From: Naegleria gruberi
Lineage: Eukaryota
Strand: one strand, 5' to 3'
Assembly (NCBI GenBank): GCA_000004985.1
Contig: GG738869.1
Length of the DNA: 64,000 nt
In this document: in pieces, positions 30,615 to 43,019 of the stretch
Layout of the letters: each line of letters starts with the position of its first letter
Numbering within the stretch: position 1 is the first letter of the stretch
The notes under the pieces: model-generated
Told to the model about the DNA's origin: nothing
The model's database searches: none
What the model saw: only the letters and a program-made list of their open reading frames with translations
Position numbers and translations under genes: made by a program

Positions 30615-33600
30615 ATGTCACAACATCAAACAACACTACAACTACTCATTTCCCTGTTTTTATTTTTGATTGTTGTTCAATGCACAGCATCAACAATGGA
30701 ATACAATACTAGTCTATCATTTGGTATTGATACACTGGTTGGCTATGATCCGAATAATGGAAATAATCTTCCTTCAATATATGCCAATTTGAATCCCAAT
30801 AATTTGACATTTGGCACGAATACAAAGATAATGTTCATGTATGATGGTGTTAGGAATGCCATCATGAAACTTGATCTGAAAACAAATCTGATTTCGAAAT
30901 TAATTGATTTAGAATATAGAGCGCTCTCAATATTAGAAACTAGAAATGGAATTTTATTTACAGATGCTCAAGGAAGGAATATTAAAATGTTGGCCAATGA
31001 TTCAATTTCTATTGTGGCAGGAACATTAACAACAGGATATTCAGGTTTGTTGATCTTGGGATGATTTTATTTTAAACTAATATTTGATATTAAAAGGGGA
31101 TGGAATTGCAAACGAAACGAAACTAAACTCTCCAAAGGGATTAATTGAGGATGGTAATGGAAATATTTATTTCATCGATTACTATAATTATAGATTGAGG
31201 AAATTATCAGGTAATATGATTTCAACAATAGCTGGTGATGGAAAGAATGAAAATAATGGAGATGGAGGATCAGCTCTAAAGGCCAACTTGAAAAATCCTT
31301 CCAATCTGGCACTAATTGACCACAACTTATACATTTTATGTGATACAGCAATAAGGAGAATTGATTTAATCACAAGTAAGATTTACAGTTTCTCAGTTGA
31401 AAGTCCATTCAAATTTACTGGAATTTTCCAAGCCAATGGAACAATTTTTGTTCACTCTGCTACTGCAATTGGTAAAATTCAATCCAATCAGAAGATTTCT
31501 ATCATTTCCGGATCAGCATCTGTATCGGGTCCTTCTGTAAATAATATTCCAGCAATTGATGCCTTATTCAAACAAATAAGTTCAATTGGGGTACTTTCGT
31601 CTGAGTTAGGGGATGTTATTTATGTTTATGATTCTTCAAATAATGATATTAGGGTTATTAATGAGACTCGTTTTATTAATCTGTTGGCTGGTGTTAAATC
31701 TTTGAAAGCAAATGTGGATTTATCGGCTCCTTATTTTATTTCTAATGATCCAATTGGACTTGCTGAGCTGATTAATGGTGATTTAGCCTTTTCGCATTCA
31801 GGTGGAATTGCCAAATATTCCAATGGATTGATAACAAACATAGTCGAATCTTCTAGCCCAATATTAGGAATTGCTTTCTATGAGAAAGAGGATGAGCTCT
31901 ATTATGTGGATTCGAACTCAAAAATTAAAAAGCTCAAAGATGGAGAAACGATACACGTAGCAGGAGCATCGAATGGACAAAATGCAGACAACATTCCAGC
32001 ATCAAAAGCATTACTTTCCTCTCCGTATGGAATTTCAATAGATCAAAGCAATGGAGACATTTATTTCACTGAACAATCAGGAAATAGAATACGAAAGATT
32101 TCTCAAGGAATTTTAACAACAGTTTGTGGAAATGGTCAAGCAGGAGATTCTGGAGATAAAGGGGAGTCCATTAAGGCACTAGTGAATAATCCAAGTGGAA
32201 TTCAGTTTACACAAAATGGAGAGATTTATTTCGCTGATTCAGGTAATAATCGTATTCGAAAGATTGTGAACGGTACCATTAACACAGTTGCTGGGGCAAA
32301 TGTTTGTAATGCTAAGGAAGGATCAAAAATGGCCACTGAAACGGTGTTGAGAAATCCAACTTTCGTTTATGTCTATCCGAATGGTGATTTTCTCATAACA
32401 GAAACAAACTCTCATTTGGTGAGAAGAGTTTCAAAAGGATTTATTTACACTATTGCAGGTACTGGACTATCTGGAGAGGGACCTGATTCAGTTCTGGCTC
32501 TTCAATCAGCTTTAACAAGTCCCAAGTCAATCATTCATTCATTTTCAATGAAACGAGTTGTACTAGTTGATAAGACCAATAGAGTGAGAATCTTAACTCC
32601 TTATTGTGAAGAGGGATATGTATTAGATGTTTATGGAGCATTCTGCATTCCTTTCTGTTTTGGAATTCTTGCAAATGATACAAATACTTGCTCTGGAAAG
32701 GGAGAATGTTCTTCATTCAACAGATGTAATTGTGCAGCATCCTATGGAGGAGAACAGTGTAATATTTCTAAATGTTTTGGAGTATTGGCAACTGACTCAA
32801 AGACATGCAGTGGAAGAGGAAAATGTTTGGATGGAATTTGTGATTGTGGAGGTAAATTCATTGGAACTAATTGTGAAATTCCCATTTGCTATGGAAAAGC
32901 TTCAAACGAGAGTGAAGTTTGTGGCGCTCATGGAAAATGTTCTAATTGGAATACGTGCGAATGTTTGGATAAGTATTCAGGCAGTTCGTGTCAATATCCT
33001 ATTTGTTTCGGCATTGCTTCAACCAGCCCTACTGTTTGCAGTGGAAGAGGAGTATGTACAGGACCAGATTCTTGTAATTGTCAATCTGGATCTTCTGGTA
33101 CTATTTGTGAAGTATCGAGAGAAGAAATTGACAAACAGAATCGAGAGAGAATAATCATAATAATTAGCTCAGTTTCAGGCTCCTTATTCTTATTATTCTG
33201 CTGTATTATTTGGACAATATCGGTATTCATATTCACCAATAGAAAGCTCAACCAACGACACAATGCAGAGCTAGATATGGAAAAGAAACTTCTTGAATTT
33301 GAGTTCAATGATTCACAATCTTCAGTCAGGGAATCAGTCTACCTCTTTTCACAACACCAGAAACCATACTTGATACCAATAGAAGATATTACATTTGTTA
33401 AAAAGATTGGAATTGGAGGATTTTCAAATGTTTATTTGGGAAAGTGGAACCAGTCGTTTGTGGCTGTCAAATCTGTTGAAAATCAAGACGATAGAGCTGA
33501 TGATGTATTTGAAAAAGAAGCACAAACTTTGTGTGCCCTCAAACATCCAAATATTATCACTTTTTATGGAATTTCATTTTCAGAGAGCAGAAAATTGCTG

Positions 33601-34371
33601 ATTGTGGAATATTTTGAAAAGGGAAGTTTAGATAAGTACATTGAAGCACTCACTACAAGGAAGATTAATTGCTCTCTAGAGAAAAAGATCAATTACTTGT
33701 TGCATATTGCTAATGGAATGGCCTATCTTCACTCGTACAAACCTAATCCTATTGTTCACAGAGATTTGAAACCAGCCAATGTTTTAATGTCAGAGAATGG
33801 AATTCTCAAGATATGTGATTTTGGATTGAGTAGAAGTTTGAATTACGAAACCAAGTCAGCCATGACATCCAATATTGGAAGTTTCTATTATTTGTCTCCA
33901 GGTAAGTTGTTTTTGGGTAGTTTATAATAATTTGATCTAAATCTGAAAGAAATGTTAAATGGAAGCAATCAAAAGAAATATGCAACTGCTTTGGATGTGT
34001 TCAGTTTTTCAATCATTGCTTGGGAATTACTTTTTGAAGAGGGAAATCCATACGATTATTCCAACAGAACAAAAGTATTTTATACAATGAATGAGGAAAA
34101 ACAGCTTCGATATGAAAAACTCAGTCCATTTAATGTTCCAACTCTTGTTTCTCAAGGCCTGAGACCACCAATTCCATTCGATTCGTCCGAAAGTTGTAAA
34201 GATTGGTGTAGCTTATTCGCAACCTCTGAAAAAGAACATTATCTCATTATTTTACAATTAACTGATTTGATTAAGCGTTGTTGGGATGAAAGACCCGAAC
34301 AGAGACCTTCATTTATAGAGATTGTGAACATATTATCTCAATTCGAAACTTATTTCTCACATGATTTGTAA
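30615..34371 (+). CDS. Receptor-type protein kinase: signal peptide, NHL repeats, tenascin-type EGF repeats, TM helix and a TKL/Ser-Thr kinase domain; join(30615..31044,31097..33901,33950..34371)
   Basis: Signal peptide 'LLISLFLFLIVVQCTAS'. NHL repeats recur ('GNRIRKISQG', 'NNRIRKIVNG', 'YNYRLRKLSG'). EGF units 'CSGKGECSSFNRCNC', 'CSGRGKCLDGICDC'. TM helix 'IIIIISSVSGSLFLLFCCIIWTISVFIF'. Kinase 'HRDLKPANVL', 'DFGLSR', 'SPE|MLNG' split by intron 2. Introns are 31045..31096 (52 nt) and 33902..33949 (48 nt, GTAAGT). Total length is 3657 nt, in frame. Confidence 0.8.
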
Positions 34372-34670: not shown

Positions 34671-36719
34671 TTAATCAGATAAATCTTCAAAGCATCTGCC
34701 TTCCTTTCTCATCAAATCAATGTGTGAATCAGCAACTCTGTCATCAACACCCTCAATATTCTTAATGATATCCTTGATGACATTGTAAGCTCTTGTTCCA
34801 AAACCTGAAACACCTCCACACAAATATAAATTTCCTTTTGATCTACTGAGCATTTGATAAACCTTTTCCTTGTTTTCATAAATGGCATCAGCAATCATCT
34901 TTCTGTCAGTTCCAGAGTAAGCAAAATGAGATTCAGAAATGAGACCATCCTTAACAGCTTGTTCAATTTCCTTCTTGTAAATAACTTCTTCAGGTCCTCT
35001 AACACCATAGAACAAAATTGAAGGACCGAATTTGATGTTTGGATTTCTCATTTGTTGAACTCTTCTTTCATCAATAAATCCTCTGAATGGAGCAATACCT
35101 GTACCACCAGCAATACAAACGATTGGTGTTTCAGGATTTTCTGGAAGTCTGAATGAAGAAGTTCTGATAACAACAGGACATGCAATAGATGGTTTGCACT
35201 CTGACAAGTAGTTGGAACACAATCCAAAGAATGTCTTGGTATTATCAATTGGCTGTACAAGTGGACCGTAGGTAATTCTCAAAATTTTTCCTTCTCCTCT
35301 CTTCTTTCTTTCTTCATTTTCTAATCTAGATGAAGAAATTGAATAGTATCTTGGTTGATTCTTTGGTAAGATACCAATGAGATCTTGCCATGTCACCTTA
35401 ATGGATGGGAATTTCTCTAACATATCTACAATATTTAACATTTTGTTCTTGACTTCAGTCAAGTATTTTTCACTCTTCCAAGATTCCAATGTAGCTTTTT
35501 CTTCGGCATTGGTTGCCTTGTCTGCCAAGAAACCTAATAAAGAAGGAGAAACGACACCATTCAAATCAAAGAATTGAGACATGGCCTGATATAAAGTAAT
35601 TGGGCTATCTCTAGTGGCAATAAATGGTGGCAATTCAATACTACATGTTGGTGTTTCAAGAGTAAAGATAATTTCCTCCATAGGCAAATCCAATTTCAAG
35701 AAACTTTCCAATCTTTTAACAAGAGATGATGGATTGGTTGGGAAAATGCAAATATGGTCACCAGTCTCATAATCTATTGGAGTTCCTTCAATATCAAACT
35801 CAATCTCAAGACGTAATCTATTGGATTCTGGACATAAATTCTTTACGGATTGAATCTTCAATGGGAATGGGTTCTTTGGTGAAACTGGTGAGCTGGCATC
35901 ATAGGAACGAACAAATTGTCTTAACTTGTCTCTATATTTGGCTTTATCTAGAAGACGAAAAAAATGCTTGCCATTTGTTGTCACACCTTCTCCCATTTGA
36001 CTTGTTTCACTTTGAGATGGTACTTGGCATGAAGATGCAGTAGATGAATTGGATGTTTCATTTTCCTTTTGTTTCAAGAATTCAATAAATTCATTCTTCC
36101 AATTTTCAAAATCAGTTTCAATACCTTCTTCACCACCATCGTCTCCTTCACCTCTCTTGAATTGTAAATCACTTCCCAAATCCTTTAAACGTTGTTCCAT
36201 TCTTTTACCAACAGCTTGATATCTTTCAGGGAAGTTGGCAGAATTTCCCAAACCAAAAATTGCATAATTTGGTGCATTGTTTTTGAAATCCAAACTCTTA
36301 GTATTGTCACTCATAAAAAATTCATAAAATGGTTTAGCATTGTCAGTTGGTTGACCTTCACCGTAGTTTGACATGATAAATAATACAATATTATACAAAT
36401 CATTTTTTTGTAAGCCAAATGACAAGGCCCTTTCTGGTTCAATATCACTCAAATCAACAACTTTAACACTTGACAAGAATGATGGATTTTTCTCCATCAA
36501 TTCGCTCTTCAAACCTTCAGCAAACATTTGTGCAGTTCCCGTTTGTGACCCATAACAAATTAACAAGTTTGTCTTGGACATGTCGACAAGACTTGCATGG
36601 AACTGTCTCATACATGCTGCTTTAAAAACACTTGTATTGGTATTCATTCTATGTTGACCAGAGCATGCATTGCGAAGTAATACACTGCAAGCATTCATTT
36701 TCAGTTTATTCATCATCAT
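34671..36719 (-). CDS. NADPH-dependent diflavin oxidoreductase (CPR/sulfite-reductase-alpha-like: flavodoxin-FAD-NADP) with N-terminal presequence
   Basis: FMN 'LICYGSQTGTAQ', 'YAIFGLGNS'. FAD 'RYYSISSS'. NADPH 'CIAGGTGIAPFRGF', 'LYLCGG'. The first ATG is at 36719 (the track start at 36725 is GTG). The N-terminal ~45 residues 'MMMNKLKMNACSVLLRNACSGQHRMNTNTSVFKAACMRQFHASL' are basic, hydroxylated and free of acidic residues. Confidence 0.85.
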   Translation of the reverse strand: MMMNKLKMNACSVLLRNACSGQHRMNTNTSVFKAACMRQFHASLVDMSKTNLLICYGSQTGTAQMFAEGLKSELMEKNPSFLSSVKVVDLSDIEPERALSFGLQKNDLYNIVLFIMSNYGEGQPTDNAKPFYEFFMSDNTKSLDFKNNAPNYAIFGLGNSANFPERYQAVGKRMEQRLKDLGSDLQFKRGEGDDGGEEGIETDFENWKNEFIEFLKQKENETSNSSTASSCQVPSQSETSQMGEGVTTNGKHFFRLLDKAKYRDKLRQFVRSYDASSPVSPKNPFPLKIQSVKNLCPESNRLRLEIEFDIEGTPIDYETGDHICIFPTNPSSLVKRLESFLKLDLPMEEIIFTLETPTCSIELPPFIATRDSPITLYQAMSQFFDLNGVVSPSLLGFLADKATNAEEKATLESWKSEKYLTEVKNKMLNIVDMLEKFPSIKVTWQDLIGILPKNQPRYYSISSSRLENEERKKRGEGKILRITYGPLVQPIDNTKTFFGLCSNYLSECKPSIACPVVIRTSSFRLPENPETPIVCIAGGTGIAPFRGFIDERRVQQMRNPNIKFGPSILFYGVRGPEEVIYKKEIEQAVKDGLISESHFAYSGTDRKMIADAIYENKEKVYQMLSRSKGNLYLCGGVSGFGTRAYNVIKDIIKNIEGVDDRVADSHIDLMRKEGRCFEDLSD

Positions 36720-36725
36720 CTTCAC

Positions 36726-37359
36726 TTAGTGGATGTAGTAACAGATGTGTGTGTGGATGTATTTTTTTTGAATCTTTAATTGTTCCTTCATCAATTATTG
36801 ATTCTTTTCATATAATATTATCATCGGGATGATGATTCATTCCTTTTGAGCAATTATGAGAATATTCAAATGCATGTATGTGTTTTATCTGAACGCACTA
36901 ATGGATTCTGAACTCTATTAATTTCTTTAATTGGCACTCGTAAAATCTTTAAATCTGTAGAGGGAGATGAAGAAAAAACAAGTCCCGTTACCCCTCATCT
37001 TCAATTTATTACCATCTCTTGTGTGAGTCATAGGCTGTCATCCGTTCAAGCAATTCTAATGAACAATGTTGTAGAAACAAGCAAAAATGAAGACCATTAA
37101 AGGAAACTAGTAATTTTTGGCGGGAGGTGTATGAAAGCTCTATTGGTACGCACAAATGGGTTTACCACCAATTCTGAACAAAAAAACATTGAAAAATAAT
37201 AAAACTCACAAATGGTGAATCTATTTCAATTAGACAATAAAGTAGCTGTCGTTAGCTGGATGTGTCGTAAGAGAATCTTTTGTTGGCTTTAAATATTCAC
37301 ATTTCTTCTTGTCACTTTGATCAACTAATAACAAAAAAACAACAACACACAACAACAAG
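36726..37359. promoter_or_regulatory. Shared divergent intergenic/promoter region between the diflavin reductase and hybrid cluster protein genes
   Basis: 634 bp lie between the two divergent start codons, with no ORF. Confidence 0.3.
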
Positions 37360-39297
37360 ATGATCAGACAATCTGCTTCTAAGCTTTTCTCTAGAGTTGC
37401 TTCCAAATCCATGCAAGTTAATGCTGGAAAGAATTTGGCTGCCTGTTCCATGATCAAGATGAATCATCAAACAACCACTCAAGCTAGAATGAATTTCTCA
37501 CAACAATACAATATGAATAGATCTGATAAGATGTTCTGTTTCCAATGTGAACAAACACAAAATGGTACTGGTTGCACAACTGTTGGTGTTTGCGGTAAGA
37601 CACCATCAGTTGCTGCATTGCAAGATTTAACCATTTATCAAACTCGTCAATTGTGTGCTTTGGCTACTTTGGCCAAGAGACAAGGATCTGTTGTTCCTTC
37701 ATTGATGGAAAAGGTTGATGACTTTGTTTTGAGAGCCATGTATAGTACTTTGACTAATGTCAATTTTGATGAACTCAGATTTGTCGAATTTTTGAAGGAA
37801 GGTTCTGAATTGACTCAACAAGTCAAGAAGGAAATGTTAGGTGGAAAGATTCCACAAGAATTCTCTGAATTGCTCACTGTCACTGAAACTGATGCTCAAT
37901 TCGATGCCATCTTGAGTCAAGCTACTTCTGCCACAGATGAAGCTACTGGAAAATTGATTGATATGGGTAAATCTGTTGGTGTTCAACCACATCACAAACA
38001 TTATGGAGCTGATACTAATGCTCTCCGTGAATTGCTCCAATATGGTCTCAAGGGTTTGTGTGCTTATACTAAGGAAGCTTCTCTCTTGGGTAAGAATGAT
38101 GCTGCTGTTGTCAATGAATTCATTAGAACTGCCATGTGTACTTTGGCTGGTGTTTCACCTGATGGTAAGGTTGACCCATACAATGCTAATGATATCATTG
38201 GTATGGCATTGAAGTGTGGTGAAGTCAACGTTAGAACTATGCAATTGATGGACGAAGGTGCTTTTGAACGTTTTGGTCAAATGGCTCCAAACAATGTTAG
38301 AACTACTCCACTCCCAGGTAAATCAATCTTGGTTTCTGGTCACGATATGGGTGATTTGTTGGCCATTTTGAAGCAAACTGAAGGAAAGGGTATCAATGTT
38401 TACACTCACGGTGAATTGTTGCCAGCTCATGGTTATCCTGAGCTCAGAAAGTTCAAACACTTAGTTGGTAACTATGGTGGTGCTTGGCAACAACAAAAGA
38501 TTGAATTCTCCAACTTTAAGGGTGCTATTGTCATGACTACTAACTGTATCATTGAACCAAGAAAGCAATATAAGGATAGAATCTTCACTACCTCAGTTGT
38601 TGGTTGGCCAGGTGTCACTCACATTAAGAATAGAGATTTCTCTGCTGTTATTGAAAAGGCTTTGGCTACAGAAGGTTTCCCAGAATCATTTGCCAATGAA
38701 AAGGTTGAACATGTCACAACTGGTTTCGGTCATCGTACAGTTTTGAGTCTTGCTGATGTTATTGTTAATGCTGTTAAGAGAGGTGATATTAAGAGATTCC
38801 ATCTTATTGGTGGTTGTGATGGTACTGAAGGTGAAAGATCATACTATAAGAATATTGCTACATCCCTTCCAAAGGATAACGTTATCCTCACTTTAGGTTG
38901 TGCCAAGTACAGATTCAACAAGATTGACTTTGGTACTATTACTACTCAAGATCCAAAGACTAATTCTGATGTTGCCTTGCCAAGATTGTTGGATGTTGGT
39001 CAATGTAACGATGCTTATGGAGCTGTAGTTATTGCTAGTGCTTTGGCTGAAGCTTTCGGTACTAAGGATCTCAACCAATTGCCACTCAACTTTGTTATTT
39101 CTTGGTTCGAACAAAAGGCTGTTGTTATTTTCTTGACAATGCTCCACCTTGGTTTGAAGAATGTCAGAATTGGTCCAAACTTGCCTGCCTTTATTCCTCC
39201 ATCCACTCTCCAATTCCTCGTTGAAACCTTCAAGTTACATCCAATCAATGCTAAGGATCCTGTTGCTGATATGGAAATGATGCAAAAGGGACTTTAA
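37360..39297 (+). CDS. hcp: Hybrid cluster protein (prismane/hydroxylamine reductase, Hcp) with N-terminal organellar-type presequence
   Basis: N-terminal Cys motif 'CFQCEQTQNGTGCTTVGVCGKTP'. HCP core motifs follow ('GHDMGDL', 'NYGGAWQQQ', 'IGGCDG', 'LDVGQCNDAYGA'). A ~50-aa basic extension 'MIRQSASKLFSRVASKSMQVNAGKNLAACSMIKMNHQTTTQARMNF' precedes the conserved start. Single exon. Confidence 0.9.
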   Translation: MIRQSASKLFSRVASKSMQVNAGKNLAACSMIKMNHQTTTQARMNFSQQYNMNRSDKMFCFQCEQTQNGTGCTTVGVCGKTPSVAALQDLTIYQTRQLCALATLAKRQGSVVPSLMEKVDDFVLRAMYSTLTNVNFDELRFVEFLKEGSELTQQVKKEMLGGKIPQEFSELLTVTETDAQFDAILSQATSATDEATGKLIDMGKSVGVQPHHKHYGADTNALRELLQYGLKGLCAYTKEASLLGKNDAAVVNEFIRTAMCTLAGVSPDGKVDPYNANDIIGMALKCGEVNVRTMQLMDEGAFERFGQMAPNNVRTTPLPGKSILVSGHDMGDLLAILKQTEGKGINVYTHGELLPAHGYPELRKFKHLVGNYGGAWQQQKIEFSNFKGAIVMTTNCIIEPRKQYKDRIFTTSVVGWPGVTHIKNRDFSAVIEKALATEGFPESFANEKVEHVTTGFGHRTVLSLADVIVNAVKRGDIKRFHLIGGCDGTEGERSYYKNIATSLPKDNVILTLGCAKYRFNKIDFGTITTQDPKTNSDVALPRLLDVGQCNDAYGAVVIASALAEAFGTKDLNQLPLNFVISWFEQKAVVIFLTMLHLGLKNVRIGPNLPAFIPPSTLQFLVETFKLHPINAKDPVADMEMMQKGL

Positions 39298-39712: not shown

Positions 39713-42700
39713 ATGGCGAAACGATCGTTCACTGATTTGCTAATTGTTACCTTGACTTCCGATGATCATTTCGAAGATATCACCATACCAGAGCACGATT
39801 GTGATTTATTGGCATTAAAACATTTTCAAAAAGTTGCAGCAGAACGTATCGAAAGAAATGAACAAATTTATTCTCATGTTTCCCATCTAAAATCAAGAAA
39901 TCACTCAAATAATTATGAAAAAATTACTAAAAATCCATTTCCGGACAATGATTGTAAATTAGCTTTTTTCAAGGTTTTAAAGTATGATGGCTTGTTGTTG
40001 CAGTTTGCATCGAATGAATTGAGAAATGATCGTGATGTTGTTTTGAGAGCTGTTAAAGAAAATGCAGGTTCTATCGAGGTGGTGAGTGAGGAATTGAGAA
40101 GTGATAGGGAATTTGTGGAGAAGGTTGTTATGATTGCTAAAGATAGAACGAGTTTGTCCACAAAAAGTTTTTTCAAATTTCTTGACAAGTTTCATGATGA
40201 TGAGTTGATTGTTAGAAAGGTGGTGGAGAAACATGTAAATTCTCTCGAGTTTGTATCACCAAGATTGAGAAATGATAGGTAGGTTGTTTAAATATCATTA
40301 CCAAAAGCAAATTCATACACAGAGAGATTGTTTGGAATGCTGTTAAAAGAAATGGATCATCTCTTCAATTCGTTCCAGAACATTTGAAAGATAGAGAATT
40401 GGTTATGCTTGCTGTGAAAACTGATTCCCAGGCACTTCTATTTGCACCAATAGAGTTTTTGAAAGATAAAGAAATTATTTCAAGAGCTGCTAAATTATCA
40501 GGACTTGCTATTAAATATGCCCACACAGAACTTAAAAACGACAGAGAGTTTGCTTTAGAGATGGTAAAGTTGAGAGCACTTGGTTATAATTATCTTTCGG
40601 AAGATCTAAGAGGAGATCGGTAAGTTGTTTGTGAAACTGTTGCAACAGTAATGAACGGAAAATTAGGGAAATTGCATTGGCAGCTATGAAGTCAATGCCA
40701 ACTTGTCTAAGAATGGCACCTAATCACATCAAAGATGATTTTGAAATTGTTTCCATTGCGGTTACGAAAAATTTATCAGCTCTTGTGTTTTCCTCACAGA
40801 GATTCAAAGATGATACAGACTTTATCTATAACTGTGCTTCAACTGCAAGTCAAATTATTTATTTTCTGAATAATCATGAATCTCTATTAGTAACTAATCG
40901 AGATTTCTGTTTACGGCTCATAGAAAAGAGTTGTGGATATGATTGTTTTAGAAATGCTCGAGATTTTGTGAAATTGGATAAGGAACTATGTCTGAAATTC
41001 ATACAAATACATCCAGATTGTTTGGAAGATGTTAAATGTGAAGATATTCTAAATGACAAACAACTCTTAATGGATTTATTGCCACACAGTGAAAAAATTC
41101 TTCTTCAAATTCCAAATGAGCTTTGTAATGATAGAGAACTCATGATGTGGGCATCGAAAATTCATGACAATGCTCTAAAATTTGCCTCTGAAGAGCTTTG
41201 TGCTGATAGAGAGTTTGTAAATGAGGCATTGCTTTGTGATTTTGGTAATTTTGAGTATTTATCAGAGGAGTTGAGAAGTGATAGAGAGTTAGTGGAAAAT
41301 ATTGTAAAAATTGATGGTTTCAATGTTCAATTTGTACCAGAATTATTTAGAAACAATAGAGAACTAATCATTACTTCAATCAGAAATGCATTCTCAGATA
41401 TTTCTCCATACTTAGGATATCAGTTGAAGGAAGATAGAGATATTATTTTGGAATCTGTGAAAAGATCTGGCATTATAGAAAATCTTCTACACGAGTTTAG
41501 AGATGATAGAGAAATTGTAATGATGGGAATTCAACAATTTGGACCAGAATTTCGATATGCTTCCAAGTTTTTACGTAGCGATAGAGAATTGGCATTAATT
41601 GCCATTAGAAACTTGTGCACTTTAGAGCATATTCCCAAGGAAATATTAGATAGAAAACTTGCCTATGAAGCTTGTAAACGTTCGGCCTTTAATTTAAAAT
41701 TTGCCTCTGAGTATAGAGAGGATGAACTAATTGTTCTTTCTGCATTAAGCAATGAAAATGGGGGTTTATATACCAAATATGTCGGTGAGCGGTTGAAGAA
41801 TGACAGAGATTTTATATTGAAAGCTTCCAAACTTCAACCTAGTATTATTGCTCATATTTCGACTGAGCTTCTCCAAGATAGAGAAATAATCATAAATGCA
41901 CTTTCGCATGATGGAAATGTACTTGCTCATCTACCAGAGGAATTCAAGAGTTGTAGAGAATATGTGGAAATAGCTGCTAACTCAAACCCACATTCACTTA
42001 AATACGCATCAGAAGATTTGAAGCAGGATCCAGAGTTGTTATATAAGGCAATTGCAACAGGGATTGCCAACTCTTTAGTTTCTGAACAATTTTTGGAGGA
42101 TGCTGATGAGTCAACTATACAAAAATGTATTGAAAATGGAGTTTCACTTCGTAGTTTTCCTAAGTCTTTAACCAGTAATAGAAACTTAGTTATTAAGGCT
42201 GTAAATATTAATATGGAGAATCTTAGATATGCATCCAAGGATCTAATTAACAAGGAACTGATTATGGAAATTTCACCAAAAAATTTTGATATATTACTAC
42301 TTCCAATCAAATGGAGAAGTGACAAAGATATTGCTTTAAAGGCTTTGGAAATGAATGGAAAATCAATAATATATATTTCTGATGAGTTGAAAAATGAATT
42401 TAAGCACAACAAGGAAATCCTATTGAAAGCAATGAAAACAGATAGCATTCCATTCCTTTATGCGAGCGATGATTTACAAAACGATCGTGATTTTATTTTG
42501 GAATCTGTTTCAACAAATGGCTTGGTATTGAGATATGTTGCATCCCATTACAAAGAAGATAGGGAAGTAGTTTTAAAGGCAGTTAAAAATCATGGAAATT
42601 CAATTCGTTACGGAGCCAGACATTTCATGAATGATAGAGAAATCATGTGGAATGCAGTTCAAAACTTGGGAGCCAAAATTCTTCCGTGCAATCCATTAAT

Positions 42701-43019
42701 TTATGGCTCCTTTGAAATACGAAGTGACCGTGAGCTAGTTCTAGAAGCCGTTCGCCATGATTATCACTCCCTTGAATATGTTGTCATTGAATTATTAAGC
42801 GACGAAGAATTCATGACGAAATGCGTGGAAATTAATATTAATTCTCTAATTTATGCTCACTACCAATTAAGATACAATGTAGATTTTCTGAAACGATTGA
42901 ACAAGACAGATATGATCAGAGAAGACACTGATTTACACAACAAAATAGATATTGAAGGACTATTAGGATACAATCCAAAACTTAAAGATTTGAATATTAT
43001 TGATAGAGCTGAAATTTAA
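39713..43019 (+). CDS. DUF4116-type tandem-repeat protein (~28 copies of a ~35-aa 'L(K/R)NDREFVLxAVKxNGxAL(K/Q)YASEEL' repeat); join(39713..40278,40323..40619,40667..43019)
   Basis: The repeat signature recurs throughout (RNDRDVVLRAVKENAGSIEVVSEELRSDREFVEKVV..., LKNDREFALEMV..., LQNDRDFILESVSTNGLVLRYVASHYKEDREVVLKAVKNHGNSIRYGA...). There are two introns: 40279..40322 (44 nt, GTAGGTTG) and 40620..40666 (47 nt, GTAAGTTG). Both join in frame; total length is 3216 nt. Confidence 0.8.

Follow-up and report, generated by a model that had tools for sequence, protein, structure and literature searches.

A head-to-head gene pair in Naegleria gruberi points to a mitochondrial diflavin reductase as a candidate electron donor of a class I hybrid cluster protein

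The donor that supplies electrons to class I hybrid cluster proteins (HCPs) has remained elusive from the time when the enzyme was first found, its usually isolated genes having given no clue from context (PMC10210160). In the stretch of Naegleria gruberi NEG-M DNA analysed here (contig GG738869.1, 64,000 nucleotides, referred to below as the window), a class I HCP gene on the plus strand and a diflavin reductase gene on the minus strand, both intronless, are divergently arranged. The reductase is the first strong candidate for the missing donor, and it is in our judgement probable, if well short of certain, that it is the physiological, dedicated electron donor of the HCP, the two genes forming a mitochondrial module. 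This reading is supported by the recurrence of the pair in distant genomes and its absence from 79 control loci, by the common location of both products and their presequences, by the separate clade to which the reductase belongs and by the complete ligand set of the HCP. A preliminary description of this DNA, made from its letters alone, had treated eukaryotic HCPs as usually lacking an identified donor, in keeping with what is stated for class I (PMC10210160).

The same description had placed two genes head-to-head between positions 34671 and 39297, and this was borne out by the list of open reading frames (ORFs) and by the Pfam and NCBIfam matches. The pair consists of the following elements:

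34671..36719, minus strand: coding sequence of the diflavin reductase, 682 aa (ORF; three Pfam domains; orthologues with 52-61% identity in the Naegleria-type loci and Willaertia)
36720..37359, no strand: shared divergent spacer, 640 bp (sequence; presumed bidirectional promoter and two 5' untranslated regions)
37360..39297, plus strand: coding sequence of the class I HCP, 645 aa (ORF; Pfam, NCBIfam and PDB matches)

The mechanically delimited ORF of the reductase (34671-36725, minus) opens with GTG, its first ATG being at 36719, and the distance from start codon to start codon is 640 bp. Thus, the shared promoter region of 634 bp described earlier stands as a shared spacer and not in its length, which had been counted from the GTG. 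The sequence in which the two ORFs lie is AT-rich (33-36% GC). The translations of the reductase and the HCP are identical to XP_002677035.1 (a "predicted protein" whose best match in the table is a beetle cytochrome P450 reductase, CPR) and XP_002676958.1, respectively, in Supplementary Data 2 of PMC8134430. An exact look-up of the two proteins had returned no match, and their identity rests on the sequences printed there. Both RefSeq models require N-terminal extension: that of the reductase begins 46 codons late, at an internal methionine (MSKTNLLICYGSQTG...), and that of the HCP 57 codons late, also at an internal methionine (MFCFQCEQ...).

The same pair recurs head-to-head in other genomes, which makes the arrangement far beyond chance. 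Among the closer relatives, it has been found in N. lovaniensis (L004), in L002, whose DNA is 88-90% identical to that of N. lovaniensis, and in the Naegleria-like L001, with a reductase 61% identical to that of the window. In the case of N. fowleri, it is deduced from the adjacent gene identifiers NF0072000 ("NADPH-cytochrome p450 reductase") and NF0072010 ("hydroxylamine reductase"), followed by NF0072030, which encodes RPS8 as in L002 and L004. Far more distant copies, also head-to-head, occur in L010 (JGI metagenome), in L009 (NCBI assembly GCA_041694795.1, the HCP being cut at the contig end), in L011 and L012 (ENA metagenomes, 57% GC, with an intron in the HCP gene) and in L093 (Logan assembly). 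The reductases of L009, L010, L011 and L012 are 27-29% identical to the Naegleria reductase (tblastn) and that of L093 (P0328) 28% (alignment); over the segments that align, the HCPs of L009, L010 and L011 show 40-56% identity to that of Naegleria. All distant reductases with the C-terminal signature EDL(S/A)D, described below, which lie on contigs long enough to show their context are head-to-head with an HCP gene, and pairing is seen in eight of the nine lineages or loci with visible context. Moreover, wherever both start codons are present, in eight loci (window, L001, L002, L004, L009, L010, L011 and L093), they lie 552-670 bp apart. The synteny sought in relatives is thus conserved, the pair being kept across Naegleria as well as in two other deep lineages of eukaryotes.

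As a control, other diflavin reductase loci were collected from metagenomes with the generic pattern PR[YF]YSI[AS]SS, almost all of them of CysJ/CPR type and mostly CysJ-like; none of the 79 had an HCP gene within 6 kb on either side. The scan contained one member of the clade of the window reductase, on a contig too short to show its flanks. The surroundings of the pair have been rearranged while the pair itself remains intact, since the neighbours differ between loci and the two genes and their spacer persist. On the reductase side, N. gruberi keeps a Brix and a Lipase_3 gene further out, with a receptor kinase gene inserted; on the HCP side it is wholly different, with DUF4116 proteins in place of the ion channel and RPS8 of L002 and L004. 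L001 differs on the reductase side.

Some further features of these loci are worth recording. The length of the spacer is uniform despite a GC range of 33-57% and differing intron content among the lineages; the reductase gene has an intron of 50-62 bp in N. lovaniensis and L002, and none in N. gruberi. A gene for an FAD-linked oxidase (FAD_binding_4 and FAD-oxidase_C domains; similar to D-lactate or glycolate dehydrogenases) adjoins the pair in L010 (4218-5489), L093 (1-888) and L009 (5468-6688), being tail-to-tail with the HCP gene in two of the three, and could be a third linked component or just lineage synteny.

The architecture of the reductase, as encoded in the window, comprises:

36099..36560, minus strand: FMN-binding flavodoxin-like domain (PF00258, 4e-25)
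35316..35888, minus strand: FAD-binding/connecting domain (PF00667, 4e-38; alignment)
34809..35114, minus strand: NAD(P)H-binding domain (PF00175, 6e-10; family-wide alignment)
34674..34688, minus strand: C-terminal EDLSD, the clade signature, standing where CPR has DVWS (alignment)

The presence of the three Pfam domains in one chain, all above their cutoffs, places the protein in the diflavin reductase superfamily. The FMN domain exhibits the motifs GSQTGTAQ, NYGEGQPTDNA and FGLGNSANFPERYQ, together with an acidic patch, GEGDDGGEEG; the FAD domain has RYYSISSS, followed by an insertion, ENEERKKRGEGK, specific to Heterolobosea. In the NAD(P)H domain, AGGTGIAPF, YS--GT and CGGVSGFG are found where CPR has GPGTG, FSR(D/E) and CGDAKNMA, respectively. 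Both the arginine of the 2'-phosphate site and the tryptophan that stacks on FAD are missing, an absence that extends to the whole clade in the alignment.

Regarding its family, the nearest characterised relatives of the reductase are CPRs, with approximately 30% identity over the whole mature protein. At full length, the PDB scores were approximately 220 bits for CPR, 172 for P450-CPR fusions, 162 for NOS, 106 for the sulphite reductase flavoprotein (SiR-FP) and 99 for MTRR; with the FMN domain alone they were 80 bits for CPR, 46 for NDOR1, 34 for BM3 and 30 for SiR-FP. The top NCBIfam model was CysJ, with 213 bits, well under its cutoff of 668 bits. The PDB alignment begins at residues 44-47, corresponding to residue 73 of rat CPR, past the membrane anchor of the latter. 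A HMMER search, exhaustive over 1.8 billion representatives, retrieved proteins of 27-38% identity with the same signatures, mostly with presequence-like N-termini. Of all fetched proteins, 31 have ED(L/V/I)(S/A)D or a near variant of it at their C-terminus, and 233 have a terminus of the D-V-W type. A neighbour-joining tree separated the reductases bearing presequences from the anchored CPRs (96% bootstrap), with monophyly of the EDL(S/A)D group at 65% and grouping of the heterolobosean sequences at 100%. The window reductase has all four features of the clade: the presequence, the EDL(S/A)D C-terminus, the CGG(A/V)xxF motif and the head-to-head HCP gene. As read from its sequence, it belongs to a separate eukaryotic clade, distinct from CPR, NDOR1, MTRR and SiR-alpha; the phylogenetic placement among these four families proposed in the preliminary description thus ends with the reductase grouping with none of them, as the PDB scores and the 96% split indicate.

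Several assignments were tried and discarded. Membership of NDOR1, MTRR or SiR-alpha is ruled out by the PDB scores, which are higher for CPR, and by the 213 bits against the 668-bit cutoff of CysJ. Hcr is ruled out by the lack of a Fer2 domain and the presence of an FMN domain, and the view that the scaffold differs from that of Hcr was thus upheld by Pfam. A canonical microsomal CPR is likewise ruled out: the anchor, DVWS and FSR(D/E) are all missing and the protein is separate in the tree.

The missing arginine and tryptophan bear on the coenzyme. Engineered enzymes such as BM3 R966D/W1046S and W1046A, and CPR W676A/W677A, are shifted towards NADH (PMC5817062). Because the same two residues are absent from the window reductase, its signatures suggest the use of NADH, which we regard as a reasonable prediction. 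The earlier reading as a full FMN-FAD-NADPH reductase is thus right as to the three diflavin domains and may be wrong as to NADPH. In the EDL(S/A)D clade as a whole, serine or alanine replaces the C-terminal tryptophan, a natural counterpart of the engineered NADH-switching mutations.

Other observations concern the family of the reductase at large. A second group of CPR-like proteins without anchor and with presequences (P0011, P0043, P0079, P0259, P0307, P0359 and P0375) ends in D(V/L)F, with phenylalanine for tryptophan, and stands as sister or neighbour to the EDL(S/A)D clade. In the subclade of the L009/L010/L093 type (P0315, P0317, P0324, P0328 and P0392-P0397), the tyrosine of (T/N)YGEG that shields the FMN is replaced (TGVGEPPDN) and GSQTG becomes (G/A)SQGG, and the FMN environment predicted from these changes may differ. 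In N. lovaniensis (L004:5231-5360, PYSW02000012.1), TTT stands for TTTT, a frameshift eight codons ahead of the reductase stop; the annotated protein has an unrelated tail of 30 residues, the alternative frame giving MFEDLAD and then a stop, and the difference in the T run is probably a homopolymer assembly error.

The partner of the reductase is an HCP by all the comparisons made: the Prismane family (PF03063) is matched at 2e-144 over residues 58-628, the NCBIfam equivalog for hydroxylamine reductase with 680 bits (2e-204; cutoff 367) and the HCP chains of the PDB at 438-469 bits. Its metal sites are as follows:

37537..37593, plus strand: [4Fe-4S] cubane motif, C60-x2-C63-x8-C72-x5-C78 (translation; presumed site of electron entry)
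38341..39114, plus strand: hybrid-cluster ligand region with H328, E352, C396, C486, C514, C549 and E584 (alignment of 121 HCPs)

In the alignment of 121 HCPs, the four cubane cysteines are invariant and the seven ligands of the hybrid cluster 100% conserved, in the motifs SGHD, YTHGE, TTNC, GGCDG, LGCAKYR, GQCND and WFEQKAV. We take these seven residues to be the hybrid-cluster ligands by homology to the Desulfovibrio HCP. Class I has been defined by the spacing Cys-x2-Cys-x7/8-Cys-x5-Cys and by the lack of the four-residue insertion of class II (PMC10210160), and the window protein, with Cx2Cx8Cx5C and no such insertion, is of class I. An HCP of the Hcr-dependent class II is ruled out, as the spacing is not Cx2Cx11Cx6C and the neighbouring gene product has no ferredoxin-type domain.

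That N. gruberi possesses an HCP was already known in 2006, and the top BLAST match of this protein in a published table is the HCP of Acanthamoeba (PMC8134430). Cluster look-ups of homologues named only Lapot gusevi, for a reductase, and Echinamoeba and Salpingoeca, for HCPs; a profile search with the clade alignment, bounded by a word index, yielded no named member. An environmental HCP fragment on a 2.5-kb contig (L006, ENA ERZ929261) is 100% identical to the window HCP, pointing to N. gruberi or a near-identical strain in that sample.

The common location of the two proteins has been established experimentally. Both fall among the 946 proteins, out of 4198 detected, that make up the mitochondrial cluster of N. 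gruberi (LOPIT-style analysis; Horvathova et al. 2021, PMC8134430). The HCP was detected with 59 unique peptides and 79% coverage, its log2 label-free quantification (LFQ) values over three fractions being 29.7, 31.6 and 33.7, and the reductase with 41 peptides and 55% coverage, the values being 25.2, 27.3 and 29.3 (PMC8134430). In these data, both proteins are enriched by approximately 4 log2 units, as much as matrix markers, HslU and adrenodoxin reductase among them, and the intensity of the HCP is approximately 20 to 1 relative to that of the reductase. The predictions by PSORT, MultiLoc and TargetP in the same table are non-mitochondrial for both proteins because the RefSeq models omit the presequences. 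The proteomic evidence speaks against the pair having a cytosolic location of the kind reported for the hydrogenase of Naegleria, and that reading was discarded. The two proteins are thus mitochondrial; the cleavage of their presequences is a prediction.

The presequences correspond to the following segments:

36579..36719, minus strand: reductase presequence, residues 1-47 (basic, without a transmembrane segment)
37360..37530, plus strand: HCP presequence, residues 1-57 (9 K/R; first acidic residue at position 56)

The reductase extension, 47-50 aa long, precedes NLLICYGSQTG and has seven K/R and one acidic residue, at position 46; that of the HCP, of 57 aa, precedes MFCFQCEQ, the point at which bacterial HCPs begin, without extension. 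There is no hydrophobic segment in either, and the maximum Kyte-Doolittle mean over 19 residues in the reductase N-terminus (0.45) indicates that there is no membrane anchor. Only these two among the 26 ORFs of at least 200 aa in the window have their first 45 residues free of D and E. The preliminary description had seen organelle-type N-termini in both proteins, a view confirmed by the basic extensions and by the presence of both in the mitochondrial proteome (PMC8134430); as for its extensions of about 45-50 aa without acidic residues, the basic and almost acid-free character stands, with lengths of 47-50 aa for the reductase and 57 aa for the HCP.

Within the reductase extension, an R-x-F occurs approximately 10 residues before the first beta-strand in five of five heterolobosean orthologues, in N. 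gruberi as R38-Q-F-H-A-S-L-V-D-M47. This stretch presumably matches the R-10 consensus for processing by MPP and Oct1. The HCP extensions measure 57-70 aa in five of five heterolobosean HCPs, and are also found in L009, L010, L093 and many other eukaryotic HCPs. Both proteins are extended in L001, L002, N. lovaniensis and Willaertia magna, with the same character and unconserved sequence; in every lineage it is the presequence character, not the sequence, that is retained for both.

From this set of observations a scheme can be proposed, in which we infer direct electron transfer within the pair, the coenzyme preference, the substrate and the co-regulation. Both genes would be divergently transcribed out of the shared spacer of approximately 0.6 kb, and both precursors imported into the mitochondrial matrix through cleavable N-terminal presequences. 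The FAD of the reductase would take up a hydride from NAD(P)H, probably NADH, and pass single electrons to the FMN; the mobile FMN domain would then hand them over to the N-terminal [4Fe-4S] cubane of the HCP, from which they would reach the hybrid [4Fe-2S-2O] cluster. There, nitric oxide (NO) would be reduced to N2O or, alternatively, hydroxylamine to ammonia, an assignment that follows work on E. coli as cited in PMC13632651 and PMC10210160. In class I proteins, the hybrid cluster has been reported to have potentials of about -150 to -250 mV and the cubane a potential about 40 mV below (PMC10210160), so that the reduction by NAD(P)H would be exergonic. These potentials, together with the precedents of diflavin and flavodoxin proteins that reduce Fe-S enzymes, such as CysJ-CysI, would make the mechanism feasible.

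Several points weigh against the role of donor. The loci with the pair represent three independent deep lineages, and not eight: Heterolobosea; L009, L010 and L093, which are counted as one because of their common FAD-linked oxidase neighbour; and L011. Neither is pairing universal, since the reductase neighbour is missing at L007 and L008, two other HCP loci of eukaryotes, and Willaertia magna has both genes, with presequences, on different contigs. For the EDL(S/A)D clade, the neighbour-joining tree supports monophyly at only 65%. No conserved promoter motif was found among the four Naegleria-type spacers by shared k-mers and short BLAST; of these spacers only those of the two closest relatives align, and the only feature that distant ones have in common is an A/C-rich leader immediately upstream of the ATG of the HCP. 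Furthermore, the HCP (NF0072010) of iron-starved N. fowleri decreased by a factor of 3.6 in whole cells and of 3.0 in the membrane fraction, the reductase (NF0072000) remaining at 1.1-fold, not significant (PMC7326272, S1/S2 tables), a behaviour that is not co-regulation. A difference of this kind is to be expected between an Fe-S protein and a flavoprotein, and says little about transcription. The same tables place the HCP among the most strongly down-regulated proteins, beside hydrogenase, and it is absent from the main text of PMC7326272. Under copper limitation, fold changes of 1.43 for the N. gruberi reductase and 1.51 for the N. fowleri HCP have been reported, the direction being colour-coded and not recoverable.

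The unlike responses to iron starvation also speak for the idea that the two genes share a bidirectional promoter as members of one regulon for hypoxia or nitrosative stress, with no direct transfer: the electrons of the reductase would go elsewhere (to a quinone, to cytochrome c or b5, to a nitro or a metal compound, for instance), and the HCP would be fed by mitochondrial ferredoxin or some other general donor. Diflavin reductases are promiscuous, which counts for this possibility. Moreover, a general donor is favoured by the authors who studied class I HCPs, on whose account hcp is usually an isolated gene (PMC10210160), and the mitochondria of Acanthamoeba have a ferredoxin that interacts with HydA (PMC13632651). 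We consider such an arrangement unlikely, since it leaves unexplained why only this clade, with none of the 79 other loci, is tied to HCP in three deep lineages, and no gene for an alternative acceptor is conserved beside the pair. The chances are slimmer for a general mitochondrial CPR serving mainly P450s, with HCP as at most one of several clients, for all that CPRs are the top matches of the reductase in the PDB and in the database, the pair is unlinked in Willaertia and three P450-like proteins (XP_002673703.1, XP_002674280.1 and XP_002674863.1) appear in the list of the mitochondrial proteome (PMC8134430). The normal supplier of mitochondrial P450s, adrenodoxin reductase, is in the same proteome and has been counted for the donor role; the genomic partner of the clade is HCP, and never a P450, at every locus examined; and the anchor, Trp and Arg signatures have been lost, unlike in the CPRs that serve P450s. 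Finally, the adjacency might be meaningless, a matter of synteny inherited within Naegleria plus chance recurrence or joint transfer of DNA between eukaryotes, in line with the partial synteny (Brix, Lipase_3) on the reductase side in N. gruberi, N. lovaniensis and Willaertia and with the third neighbour common to L009, L010 and L093. This is very improbable: between lineages whose proteins are 27-46% identical gene order is otherwise lost, and the pair, its orientation and its spacer persist; both products are in the same organelle; and a joint transfer with subsequent retention would itself favour coupling.

As for the other genes around the pair in the window, the kinase gene inserted between Lipase_3 and the reductase (31216-34371, plus) encodes a transmembrane protein kinase with NHL repeats and teneurin-type EGF, and is apparently interrupted by a very short intron near 33928-33951; in N. 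lovaniensis, Lipase_3 immediately adjoins the reductase, with no kinase gene between them. Downstream of the HCP gene (39713-43019, plus), two successive ORFs consist almost entirely of DUF4116 repeats, 12 of them in the 777-aa ORF. Other Naegleria genomes have the ion-channel gene and RPS8 flanking HCP at that place.

The partner for HCP, the conserved bidirectional pair and the distinct reductase clade all appear to be new. No paper linking HCP with a diflavin or P450 reductase was found in a literature whose coverage was incomplete, an earlier mention being possible. Mitochondrial HCP has recently been highlighted as induced by anoxia and as a possibly ancestral part of facultatively anaerobic mitochondria (PMC13632651), and a reductase that is both co-localised and genomically linked makes the question of the donor a testable one, by reconstitution with two proteins. 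The reductase is besides of interest as a distinct diflavin branch, apparently a natural version of the NADH switch engineered in CPR and BM3. The pair is also present in a pathogen, N. fowleri. A wider proposal is put forward tentatively, the odds being slightly against it: the pair would be an ancient mitochondrial cassette, either derived from an early eukaryote or handed on as a unit from one eukaryote to another, and retained as a bidirectional gene pair with its spacer of approximately 0.6 kb in at least three deep lineages. A new functional class of naturally Trp-less and Arg-less, NADH-driven diflavin reductases would then be the physiological donor of class I HCP, and facultatively anaerobic mitochondria would gain an NADH:NO (or hydroxylamine) oxidoreductase.

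Among the known systems, the closest in logic is the bacterial Hcp-Hcr, in which Hcr, a flavoprotein oxidising pyridine nucleotides, feeds the cubane of HCP for the reduction of NO or hydroxylamine (van den Berg 2000 and Wang 2016, as cited in PMC13632651 and PMC10210160). Both are two-component systems of adjacent genes. Hcr, however, contains FAD and a [2Fe-2S] cluster, whereas the N. gruberi reductase has FMN and FAD domains and no Fe-S domain; unlike the Hcr-dependent class II proteins, the N. gruberi HCP lacks the four-residue insertion that has been proposed as the docking site of Hcr (PMC10210160); and, instead of an operon, the N. gruberi genes are divergent, eukaryotic and both provided with mitochondrial presequences. 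By analogy, the reductase may act like Hcr without being a member of its family.

With CPR/POR, the reductase shares the three-domain architecture, the FMN and FAD motifs, approximately 30% identity and a score of 220 bits; unlike CPR, it is mitochondrial, has a presequence in place of the anchor to the endoplasmic reticulum and has an Fe-S enzyme, not a heme protein, as genomic partner. The Acanthamoeba castellanii HCP also has a presequence, is mitochondrial by microscopy and is induced by hypoxia and anoxia (Cell 2026, PMC13632651); that paper names no electron donor for it, and makes no mention of a P450 reductase or of diflavin proteins.

A precedent for a diflavin protein reducing an Fe-S enzyme is offered by CysJ-CysI, in which the FMN domain of CysJ reduces a separate Fe-S-containing subunit encoded by the neighbouring gene; CysI is a [4Fe-4S]/siroheme hemoprotein, and in N. 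gruberi the partner is HCP instead. In eukaryotes, diflavin and Fe-S proteins are paired in NDOR1/Tah18 with CIAPIN1/Dre2, in the fusion that constitutes pyruvate:NADP+ oxidoreductase (PNO) and in the hydrogenase-CysJ fusions of anaerobic protists, several of these systems acting in an anaerobic type of organelle metabolism. The N. gruberi reductase differs from PNO and the hydrogenase-CysJ fusions in being a stand-alone protein, and from the NDOR1 pairing in its partner, the HCP encoded head-to-head with it.

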